DNA of 64,000 nt from assembly GCA_012295275.1 (NCBI GenBank), contig CM022677.1, positions 22,258,001 to 22,322,000 on the forward strand, in the 5' to 3' direction. Shown here in pieces: positions 1 through 16,380 of the stretch; within the stretch, counting starts at the first letter, position 1, and every line of letters begins with the position of its first letter. This stretch comes from Chrysomallon squamiferum. Lineage: Eukaryota; Animalia; Mollusca. A program made the translations under genes and the position numbers. The notes under the pieces were generated by a model, which ran no database searches, had not been told where the DNA came from, and saw nothing but the letters and a program-made list of their open reading frames with translations.

Positions 1-3000
1 GTGCTCAAGTGACTGGTGAGAATAAAGATACTAAATATTATCGAAACAAATGTCTGTAATTTTTGTCCCTCTGATGATCAGAGTTATTTTTATCGTTCTT
101 GTTGAAGCTCAGTTGTTACAACATCATTCATAATCTCTCTCTCTCTCTCTCTCTCTCTCTCTCTCTCTCTCTCTCTCTCTCTCTCTCTCTCTCTCTCTCT
201 CTCTCTCTCTCTCTCTCTCATTCAGATAATAACTGAGGAACATACACATTTTGATATTTTTGTAACATTATTATTTTGAAAGCATTTACTTGACACCTGA
301 ATTGTTAAGAAATTCATATTGTTTTGTTTTCCTTTTATTCCAGGAGGGTTCAGAAAAGGCTTCTCGAGTCGTAAGTAAGATTAGACATCGATTTTTTTGT
401 TTTCCCTTTTTCTGAACAAAGACAGTAAACAGAAGTATGATTCATATTGAACAGAAGTCTATCTATCTATCTATCTAATTATTAATGAAATGTAAGTAAG
501 AATCCCTCCCACCCCAAAAAAAAAAATAATAATAATAAAAAAAAAAAAAAAAAAAATAAAAAAAATATATAATTAAAAAAGATAATAATATATATAATAA
601 TAATAAAAGAAATAAATAAATAAATAAATAAATAAATAAATAAATAAATAAATAAAAAATAAGAAATACAAAAAATTAATTTATATTGATAAATAATAAC
701 TAATAATATTTTATTTTTGAGTGAAATGAGATAGGAGAATGCAAAACTGATGAAGCTTTTAGTTGCAATAATCTTATCTTATTCGTTAAATATATTATAC
801 ACACATAATTATGTCGAATATCCTCAATATTTTAATTTAAACTATAATTTTTTCTTATTTACTTTGAGTTCACTTCACCCCAGAATTTTTAAGGAATTGG
901 TTTTATTTTATTTTATTTTTTATACCAGGAATGAGGGGTTTTGGAAGTCGGATTCGTAAGTAATATAAAAACATATACAGATATTTCTTTCCTTTTTACT
1001 GCACAAAGACAGTAAAGCGAAGTGTTTCATAAACAGAAAAACCTATGTGATTCACATTTTTAACAGAAAAAAAAAATAAAAAAAAAATAAAAAATAAAAT
1101 AACAACAAAAAAAGCTATAATGGTTAATGAAGTATAAATAATAATAAAAGAAGGAATAAATCAATCAATAAATAAAAAATTAACCGATTGTTAAAAATGC
1201 AGTTACTTAATTGATATTCATAACTAATAATCAACAATATTTTATTTTTGAGTCAAATGTGATACAAGTATGAAATTGCTGAAGCAGTTATTTGAAATAA
1301 TTTTACCTTATTCGTTAAATATATTTGCACATAATTTTGTCAAATCTCTTCCCTATTTTAATTTAATTTAATTTTATTAGTATTTATTTTCTAAATACAA
1401 TATTTTTCTTTAATTTCCTTTCTTAGAATTATAGTTCTTTTTCATATATTCCTTTTCTTTGTTGCTTCTTCCCTCTTGTATCGTTTTTCCTCTTTCGTCT
1501 TTCTTCTTTTTTCTTTTTTATATTTCTCTTCCATCATCTTTACACTTTCTCATTCATTCTGTCTTTTATACAACATATTTTTGTTTATTGTTTACACACC
1601 ACCATTAACGATACTGCGAGAATGCAGCGATTCAAAGGTCAAACTGTGCGAGTTCAAACCCTAATTTTGATCATTCAGACATTCAACATCTTTCTGTACG
1701 TGTTTAATTTATTACAAACATCGCGTCTTTAGCGGACTTATGGAGTAGAAAAGATAGTGCGGCTGATGGAGATCGGGGCTCTGTTTGGGTTTCTATGTTT
1801 GTAAAACTTAAATATACCTTACACTTACTACGTGTTTTATGATGTGTAAAATAAGTTTAATCAGTGAACTGGATATATTTGTAATTGTAATTTAGTAGCA
1901 GGACGTTATCCCTGCTATGTTTGTCGTGGGTACTTATTTGACTGACGTAAACAAAGACTGTGAATTTGTTGAAAACAGTTGTCTGTAATTTGTGTCCGTC
2001 TAATGAGAGGACAACTGCAGTGTATGGACACGTGTTATTGTTCCCTCGGATGTCCGTACAAGACATGCACCACTGCATTTTGTTTGCATTAAAATTTATG
2101 CTCAATATACATATATTTCCTGCTTCAGATGTAAGATTTTCAAACTGATTGCTGGTCACAACTTGTAAATTATCATTTCAGAATTATTTGTATCGCTGTT
2201 GTTGTTGAAGCTCAGTTAATACAAAATCATTCGTTTACTCTCTCTCTCTCTCTCTCTCTCTCTCTCTCTCTCTCTCTCTCTCTCTCTCTCTCTCTCTCTC
2301 TCTCTCTCTCTCTCTCTCTCTCTCTCTGACTGACGAACATACACATTTTGATATTTTTTGTAACATTATTATTTTGTAAGAGTTCACTTCACACCTCAAT
2401 TGTTAAGAAATTCATATTCTTTTATTTTCCTTTTATTCCAGGAAGGGTCGGAAAAGGTTTATCGAGTCGTAAGTAATATTAAAATTATATACAGACCTTT
2501 CACTGTTTTCCTGTTTCTGCAGAAAGAGAGTAAACCGAAGTGTTACATAAACCGAAAAAAGTGCATGTTTCATACGTTTAACAGAAGAAATAATATATAT
2601 ATATATATATGTGTATATATATAATTTTTTTGAGTTTTACGATGTGCAAATTCGGTTTTATTTGGATACATCAATGACCTCGATATACATTAGCAATTGT
2701 AATTTAATGGGAAGCTATATTTGTTTACCTCTGATGAGAGGTTGTTACAACTGCAATGCAGGTACACTTGCACTCTGCCGCTCTGATGTAGTTACAAGAC
2801 AGGTACCATTGTATTTTTTTTGGTAAAAAATCTCTAGGCAAAAAATAAAAAATAAAAAATAAAAAAACCCCATTCTACTTATGATACTAGTTTTAAAACG
2901 TTCATAGTTGGTAAGAACTTATGACATATCATTTCAGAATTATGTTTTTGTTTGATGTTTTTACTGAAGCCCCGTACCTAGAACATCATTCATTAGGAAT

Positions 3001-15000: not shown

Positions 15001-16380
15001 TGAGCTGTTACATAAACCGAAAATCGTGTATGATTCATATGTTTAACAGAAAAAAAGTTAATTAAATATATAATAATAATAATAATAATAATAATAATAA
15101 TAATAATAAAAAAAAAAAACAACAAACAAAACAAACAAAAAATAAAATAAATAAAAGAACAACAAACAATTAAAAATGCAGTTACTCAACTGATATTCGT
15201 GTCTAACAATATTTAATTTTTGAGTCAAATGAGATACAAAAACTATAAAATTCATAAACATTTTATTTGCAATAATCTAATCTTAACTGTTAAATATATT
15301 TGCACAATATTTTTCATTTATTTTCCATTTTTAAAATTATAGTACTTTTTAATATTTTCCTTTTTCTTTGTTGCTTCTTTCTTCCTGTCTCGTTTTTCGT
15401 CTTTCCTCATTTTTTAAATTTTAGTTTTTCTCTTTATTCTTATCTCCTTCATTCTTTCATTATTTCTGTCTTTCATCCATCGTACTTTTTTTTATTGTTT
15501 ACAAACCACCATTAATCATTTCACGAGAATGCAGCGAGCGAAACGTTTGCCCGCCAAACCGTGCGAGTTCAAAGCATCTGATACACAATTTTCATAATTC
15601 AAACATTCAACAACTTTCTGTACGTGTTTATTGTTTTTACAAACATCGCGTCTTTAGAGGACTTTTGAGGTGGAAAAGATGGCGCGGCTGACAGAGATCG
15701 GAGCTCTGTTTGGGTTTCAATATTTTTTAAAACATGAATATATCCTATGCTTATTATGAGTTTTATGATGTGCAAAATAAGTTTTCCTCTGCATCCATCA
15801 GTGAACTCGATATATTTGCAGTTTCGTAGCAAGTTGTTATTCTTGTCATATTTTGCTGATGTAACTGACATAAAGAAAAATTGTAAATATATTCAAAACA
15901 ATTGTCTCTACAATTAGTCCTTCTGATGAGAGGACAACTTCAGTTCGGATGTCCGTATAAGAAAGGTGTCTATTTACTTTGTATAAAAGTTTAAAAAAGA
16001 ACAAAAAAAAAAAAAACAAAATTGGACTGCAGATACAAGTTTTAAAAACTGATAGTTTGGTAAGAACTTATGAAATATCATTTCAGAATTAATATTATCG
16101 TTGTTGTTGCCATTCATTAGCTCTCTCTCTCTCTCTCTCTCTCTCTCTCTCTCTCTCTCTCTCTCTCTCTCTCTCTCTCTCTCTCTCTCTCTCTCTCTCT
16201 CTCTCTCTCTCTCTCTCTCTCTCTCTCTCTCTCTCTCTGACGAACACACACGCTTTGTGATATTTTATGATTATTCATTCGTACATGAATGTTTAAGAAA
16301 TTAATATACATTTATTTGCTTTCTATATCAGCTATATACGGCAACAGATTACTGCACGGTAAGTAATATAAAAAAAATAT
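1..16380. repeat. Tandem ~2.0-2.2 kb two-exon duplication units; (CT)n tract before almost every exon
   Basis: A-type exons at 344, 2442, 4545, 6565, 8571, 10774 and 12947 are spaced 2006-2203 bp apart. Intron blocks are near-identical between units, e.g. gtctttagcggacttatggagtagaaaagat recurs at ~1725, 3785, 5833, 7856, 10076 and 12222. Confidence 0.95.

Follow-up and report, generated by a model that had tools for sequence, protein, structure and literature searches.

The window analysed here, 64,000 nucleotides of contig CM022677.1 (GCA_012295275.1, positions 22,258,001 to 22,322,000 of the forward strand), carries what is likely a membrane-anchored gene whose 5′ end lies beyond the window. 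The gene model joins 28 exons, all bounded by GT-AG ends, into a single open frame of 278 residues that runs to position 27006 (Table 1). Its first twelve visible exons form an in-register array encoding a strongly basic repeat, and they are followed by four out-of-register exons, a stalk, a transmembrane (TM) exon and a tail exon. Exons were called by a splice-site scan of both strands, which recovered all 16 exons of the interval 344-16358, where the sequence-only reading had placed a membrane-tethered array of helices resembling antimicrobial peptides (AMPs). Each of these exons has an AG acceptor, a GT donor and phase 1, and each is 27 nt long with the exception of exon 13 (30 nt). One of the three frames is open across all 16 (stops per frame: 3, 5 and 0).

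The product of exons 1-12 comprises 108 residues, of which 24 (22%) are Gly and 42 are Lys or Arg. One further codon is split and encodes Arg if the last base of the upstream exon, beyond the window, is C or A, which agrees with the earlier count of about 43 basic residues. Asp and Glu, as noted earlier, are absent from exons 1-16 (145 residues), and so is Cys. The proposed consensus RVRG[LIM]GKRL-R[SKR]VGKG[LI]S[RKS] describes exons 3-12, whereas exons 1 and 2 have diverged from it, though they remain in register. Exon pairs 5/7, 9/11, 4/10 and 8/12 are identical, and further array exons may lie 5′ of the window. The hydrophobic residues of the 18-mer occupy positions 2, 5, 9, 12 and 16, that is, 20-100 degrees on a helical wheel, the narrow arc that had been noted earlier. 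When angles from 20 to 180 degrees were scanned, the hydrophobic moment was maximal at exactly 100 degrees (0.561), while the highest value in 20,000 residue shuffles was 0.28. Beta-strand periodicity was rejected (moment 0.02-0.05 at 170-180 degrees). Moments of the 11 windows of 18 residues in exons 1-12 were 0.48-0.62 (shuffle p 0.0005-0.02), compared to 0.03-0.38 for the four windows after exon 12, and the hydrophobic vectors of all 12 array exons pointed to 22-84 degrees in a single global register. Around the wheel, the five aliphatic positions are followed by Gly, Gly and Ser, six mostly basic positions (180-280 degrees), two Gly and then two Arg that flank the hydrophobic face. This face is five aliphatic residues wide, and aromatic residues are absent in exons 3-12. 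Each 18-residue window carries a charge of +6 to +8, and mean hydrophobicity of the array is 0.024 at charge +7. Thus, the windows of exons 1-12 combine the net positive charge and high moment that characterize linear α-helical cationic AMPs. As a continuous helix, the 108 residues are predicted to extend over ∼16 nm. The likeness to magainin that had been drawn from GIGKRL is confined to one exon: only one of the six even exons starts with GIGK, and this single hexamer gives no evidence of kinship.

Why does the array alternate between two kinds of exon? Nine residues turn a helix by 180 degrees, so that repeats of one exon are barred and a complementary partner is needed. The odd (A) exons are hydrophobic at positions 3 and 7, the even (B) exons at positions 2, 5 and 9. 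Computed moments of AAAA and BBBB were 0.0, and that of BABA was 0.57. Among 20,000 shuffles of exon order, 44 reached the moment of the actual array, as many as strict alternation alone would account for. Computed skipping of an adjacent exon pair left the moment at 0.55-0.57 in 9/9 cases, whereas skipping of one exon lowered it to 0.05-0.49, with the lowest values for central exons (0.05-0.19). The exon-pair logic, according to which 18 residues make five turns and a duplicated pair preserves the helical face, is therefore well supported, and more strongly so than the sequence-only reading had claimed.

The introns record how the array arose. Flanks of A and B exons were 82% identical upstream and 73% downstream, whereas 10 control comparisons, made with unrelated acceptors, gave 37-56%; the exons themselves were 43% identical. 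In three A-B pairs we counted 17, 13 and 17 differences per 27 bases against a flank divergence of 25% (binomial P of 3e-5, 8e-3 and 3e-5 for pairs that are not independent), a contrast that could be inflated by intron homogenisation. Amino-acid differences among exons 3-12 all conserve the residue class, which random changes do in 23-31% of cases, with classes set after the data were seen. No codon difference was synonymous only in 20 pairwise comparisons of exons 3-12, too few events for a claim of positive selection. If B had arisen from A through a slip of two codons, a shifted alignment should fit better, but it gave 10/21 matches, no better than the unshifted one. Most likely, a single ancestral 9-codon exon diverged into the two anti-phase partners, and in the simplest history a 27-nt exon would have been duplicated, its copies would have diverged in anti-phase, and the pair would then have been amplified as a ∼2-kb unit. 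In addition, a (CT)n tract of 80-170 nt ends ∼95-130 nt 5′ of the exon in 15 of the 16 array cassettes (134-16238) and is missing only before exon 2. These tracts could help the micro-exons to be included in the mRNA, or they could favour unequal crossing-over.

Downstream of exon 12 the helical register is lost. Exons 13-16 encode a basic stretch of 37 residues, and their vectors point to 62, 194, 276 and 17 degrees with moments of 0.06-0.47. The helix array, which had been thought to reach 16358, thus stops at 11749. The stalk encoded by exons 17-23 contains 11 acidic residues and one Lys or Arg among 46. Tyr residues amid acidic residues are typical substrates for sulfation, and the five Tyr found among six acids in exons 17-19 are possible sulfation sites. 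The donor of exon 23 is weak, so that this exon may be skipped. The intron that follows it holds a 65-bp tandem array and then an exon-less copy of the stalk-exon intron cassette. Exon 27 encodes a single TM helix (best 19-residue Kyte-Doolittle mean 2.92). The tail begins with a basic stop-transfer cluster, contains an acidic cluster and an LDL-receptor-like FxNPxF motif, and ends at the stop codon 27004-27006. Positively charged residues tend to stay on the cytosolic side of a membrane. At the predicted cytosolic end of the TM helix, five of eight successive positions are basic, and by this positive-inside rule the topology is N-out, with the array probably outside the cell. The only N-glycosylation sequon lies in the tail and does not argue for the reverse topology, since it is absent from a second copy of the last exon (Table 1); this copy retains F-x-N-P-x-F.

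Table 1. Features of the gene and of its neighbourhood in the window
Feature	Position	Strand	Remarks
In-register array, 12 phase-1 exons of 27 nt	344-11749	+	∼2-kb tandem two-exon units
Odd (A) exons	344-370, 2442-2468, 4545-4571, 6565-6591, 8571-8597, 10774-10800	+	
Even (B) exons	929-955, 3257-3283, 5308-5334, 7330-7356, 9548-9574, 11723-11749	+	
Exons 13-16	12947-12976, 13603-13629, 14905-14931, 16332-16358	+	Older copies of the array intron cassette
Exons 17-23 (15 or 18 nt)	16944-16958, 17523-17537, 18177-18194, 19134-19148, 19843-19857, 20578-20592, 21323-21340	+	
Stalk (exons 17-23)	16944-21340		Acidic Tyr-rich, then Pro/Ser-rich; gene model and duplicated flanks
Tandem array in intron 23	22295-22989		65-bp unit
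Exon-less stalk cassette in intron 23	22942-23442		
Exons 24-26, juxtamembrane stalk	23545-23571, 23910-23936, 24572-24616	+	24 residues
Exon 27, single TM helix	26259-26325	+	Model and RNA contigs
Exon 28, coding part	26883-27006	+	Tail of 40-41 residues; model and RNA contigs
RING/TRIM-NHL-like copies	28192-30111, 37137-38200, 50168-52048	-	DNA 69-76% identical
Probable second Cys-rich exon	∼33770-33865	+	Upstream of the EGF-like exon
EGF-like exon	35898-36014	+	Pfam PF00008, E 4e-5
Duplicated non-coding block	44896-46245, 46705-48317		88-90% identical
Lone second copy of last exon and 3′ UTR	48323-48904	+	90% identical over 592 nt
Three tandem units of ∼1.4 kb	53432-57698		93-95% identical

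Short-read contigs came from three RNA runs (X1, X2 and X4) and from a fourth run (X3) whose kind is unrecorded. At 26255-27470, the three RNA runs cover both exon 27 and exon 28, with no cover at 26378-26869. One X2 contig splices exon 27 to exon 28 (joint 26323>26881, with GT..AG ends after a shift of the cut by +2), and in each of X1, X2 and X4 the 3′ terminus of exon 26 is recognisable in loose contig ends, joined to exon 27. These are the only two exon joints confirmed by RNA; exons 17-23 were not seen in the RNA contigs. X1 contains three versions of exon 28 with 0, 9 and 16 differences; at least three tail variants are thus present, pointing to a small family or to alleles that have diverged. 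One X1 contig has 402 nt 5′ of exon 28, compared to 277 nt for the modelled exons 17-27. Exon 1 was found in two unspliced X1 contigs (10-20% divergent) and in none of X2 or X4, although contigs are hard to place on 27-nt exons and a missing spliced exon 1 is therefore weak as evidence. One of these X1 contigs carries a cassette whose exon start is not among the 16 in the window, and further cassettes therefore exist elsewhere. X3 carries exon 1 and its flanks without a difference. The earlier claim of a membrane tether with the repeat outside is supported by the TM exon, the basic cluster and the FxNPxF tail, although RNA shows only the joints of exons 26-27-28 and no signal peptide is visible. 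The anchor lies beyond 344-16358, in exon 27.

Part of the gene model might be wrong: the exons could be mutually exclusive, belong to a separate gene, encode a cytosolic or organelle-binding helix like that of perilipin-4, or some units could be assembly duplicates. The identical exon pairs are compatible with such an error, as are the 5′ end beyond the window and the absence of exons 1-25 from the spliced RNA contigs. We nevertheless consider it very unlikely. The anti-phase complementarity of A and B makes sense only if they are joined in turn, in the model, neither a stop nor a terminal exon separates the array from the TM exon, and introns of like units are 87-97% identical, so that their differences of 3-13% disfavour an assembly artefact. 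A mitochondrial presequence is unlikely, given the length of the array and the tail motif.

Homology searches covered the tail (40 aa), the sole part long enough in unspliced DNA. No match at E≤10 was found among 7 candidates, no Pfam family matched, and the Atlas gave no usable match. A search against 1.84 billion representatives returned one match, to a mosquito repeat protein over 18 residues, which was rejected as chance, and one weak match in PDB (E 0.038) was likewise rejected. By these searches the tail has no credible homolog. An exact scan for exon 1 in metagenome contigs gave 0 hits, and no title or abstract described such a protein or exon arrangement in a literature search that left most subscription journals outside. 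Cationic amphipathic sperm proteins occur in gastropods, and a tail with no homolog, exons that diverge faster than introns and homogenised tandem units would also suit a protein of gamete recognition or membrane fusion. Such traits are typical of reproductive genes but equally of immune genes, no similarity to gastropod sperm proteins was shown, and no expression pointed to the gonad; we regard this explanation as very unlikely, about as much so as a faulty gene model.

What could the protein do? We tentatively favour, at somewhat less than an even chance, a single-pass cell-surface receptor that catches anionic microbial surfaces by charge and is then internalised. Such a micro-exon gene would have been built by repeated duplication of the 27-nt exon pair, with exons 1-25 included in the same mRNA as the TM exon and a signal peptide encoded upstream of the window. 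The array would be extracellular or luminal and, given its 22% Gly, disordered in water; on contact with an anionic surface, with lipopolysaccharide (LPS) or anionic phospholipid as the putative ligand, it would fold into one long one-sided cationic helix of up to 16 nm. Since the mean hydrophobicity is so low at this charge, binding would be mainly electrostatic and shallow, with avidity rising with length. Microbes captured by charge could then be carried into the cell via the FxNPxF motif. While the protein is secreted, its cationic array may be partly masked by the acidic stalk. Judged from composition, charge-driven surface binding would fit the low hydrophobicity, the narrow face and the Gly content at least as well as lysis would. 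Bacterial binding by a tethered domain has a precedent in CXCL16 (PMC8036711), and membrane-active helices encoded by micro-exons are also described (PMC12998952).

Several points weigh against this receptor. The visible part of the gene contains no signal peptide, the X1, X2 and X4 contigs showed no spliced form of the cationic exons when checked for exon 1, and these RNA runs all derive from a single study. The Gly content also means that helix formation is a prediction only. The tail motif is NPxF and not NPxY, and one LDL-receptor sorting signal is described as intolerant of Phe for Tyr (PMC2120116); with Phe in place of Tyr, uptake is an inference only. Moreover, cationic amphipathic helices bind many polyanions, and microbes are one candidate ligand among several.

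The last point bears on an adhesion or matrix protein for a non-microbial polyanion or mineral, such as sulfated glycans, mucus, the shell or scale matrix, or nucleic acid. XBBXBX is a heparin-binding motif, and nine motifs of this type occur, a count that also speaks for the receptor. Together with the very high charge and low hydrophobicity, these motifs would suit such a role. Furthermore, molluscan hard-part proteomes are reported to contain repeat-bearing, disordered and TM-containing proteins (PMC11871041). A strict one-sided hydrophobic face over 108 residues, however, is superfluous for binding polyanions and suggests a lipid or helix-packing partner, and the tail resembles an endocytic signal; we regard a matrix role as unlikely.

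Basic sites within the array raise another explanation, that of a tethered precursor of shed AMPs, whose ectodomain would be released or cut at basic sites; Gly-Lys-Arg would then yield amidated peptides and the acidic stalk would serve as a neutralising pro-piece. Gly-Lys-Arg is present in five of the six even exons, there are 13 dibasic sites, and the 18-mers, with their charge of +6 to +8, are AMP-sized. The layout also recalls that of myticalins, in which a cationic region and a dibasic site, the latter with a Gly for amidation, are described as followed by an anionic extension (PMC12294457). On the other hand, hydrophobicity is 0.02 compared to 0.4-0.8 for the helices of MEG-8.2, which are described as lysing cells (PMC12998952). 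Exons 2 and 14 lack Gly-Lys-Arg, and the register conserved across exon pairs would not be needed by separate peptides. Furin-type convertases disfavour Val or Leu after a dibasic site (the P1′ rule), and one of these two residues follows 12 of the 13 sites. We regard shed peptides as unlikely, to about the same degree as a matrix role.

A bolder version of the capture receptor is that the mollusc independently evolved a micro-exon family of membrane-tethered, AMP-like helix arrays, tuned in five-turn steps, which catch and perhaps permeabilise bacteria. Helix length and charge would be set by duplicating or skipping exon pairs, and bacteria would be met at the cell surface or inside vacuoles. 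This is doubtful, if slightly less so than the two preceding explanations. If it were true and the host were a symbiont-bearing vent snail, the array would be a candidate tool for symbiont uptake or control.

The closest analogue among known systems is the micro-exon genes (MEGs) of schistosomes, through convergence and not through membership. By definition, symmetric exons of 6-36 bp make up ∼80% of what a MEG encodes (PMC5825161). Here, 25 of the 28 exons are symmetric and at most 36 nt long, and they make up 600 of 836 nt, or 72% of the coding sequence visible (the 5′ part lies beyond the window). MEG-8.2, MEG-12, MEG-26 and MEG-14 are described as similarly composed mostly of short symmetric exons, and MEG products as secreted or membrane-anchored, several with cationic amphipathic helices (PMC5825161, PMC12998952); in our gene, the TM exon is spliced to the tail exon. 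MEGs also produce variants by skipping exons; in the short-read contigs analysed here, the 27-nt exons were not seen spliced. MEGs, however, are described as flatworm-restricted (PMC4350168), whereas the present gene probably comes from a gastropod. Its exons are tandem copies of one cassette in anti-phase pairs, an arrangement that is not part of MEGs as the sources describe them.

Other systems share single features with this gene. Myticalins of Mytilus are, as described, likewise molluscan and lineage-specific, with a Cys-free cationic region followed by an anionic one and Gly before a dibasic site, but they are reported to have three exons, a signal peptide and one mature peptide without a TM helix (PMC12294457). 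With at least 28 exons, at least 6 repeats, a TM helix and a tail, our gene is not a myticalin. Perilipin-4, α-synuclein and apolipoproteins similarly have weakly hydrophobic repeats described as unfolded until lipid contact, and synuclein also has an acidic region downstream; in this account their repeats are 11/22/33-mers (3-11 helices) without a TM anchor (PMC6164224). The array differs from these in its 18/5 repeat, its charge of ∼+7 per unit and its predicted extracellular position, and its moment is 0.561 at 100 degrees compared to 0.335 at 98 degrees, which is not a 3-11 periodicity. CXCL16/SR-PSOX is a type I protein whose stalked ligand domain is described as binding bacteria, driving uptake and being sheddable (PMC8036711), and tails of the LDL-receptor family are described as carrying an NPxY-type uptake signal (PMC6912373), where both tail copies here have FxNPxF. 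No chemokine, LDLa or SRCR domain is present in the visible part, and the analogy with both is functional only.

In this gene, the length of an exon and the geometry of a helix are seen to limit one another, and homologous introns preserve the history. It also extends to a likely mollusc a micro-exon architecture described as flatworm-restricted (PMC4350168), in genes that annotation easily misses. According to a review of mussel AMPs, no Gly-rich or amphipathic-helix AMPs were known in bivalves before its own predictions (PMC12294457), and a cationic helix that is tethered and tunable in length would add a new type to the pattern-recognition or effector molecules of invertebrates.

The remainder of the window, which overall has ∼30% GC and is microsatellite-rich, as in animal genomes, contains further genes and duplications. 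Downstream on the minus strand lies a gene that combines a RING exon with a long exon matching NHL weakly. It gave three matches among 7,090 candidates: two were TRIM-like or uncharacterised proteins of the vent gastropod Gigantopelta aegis (37-38% identity), and the third, with 7% coverage, was a protein named streptogramin lyase. These matches point to a gastropod host, which may be a neomphaline. The middle one of the three RING/TRIM-NHL-like copies appears broken. The lone second copy of the last exon is not accompanied by copies of the upstream exons anywhere in the window and lies directly 5′ of the 3′ end of the third TRIM-like copy, which points to a segmental duplication that included the ends of both genes; a duplicated non-coding block lies just upstream of it. 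Each of the three tandem ∼1.4-kb units contains a candidate minus-strand exon of 116-132 nt, and the 38-aa translation of one of these had no Pfam match. The EGF-like exon, with a probable second Cys-rich exon upstream, is part of another gene.

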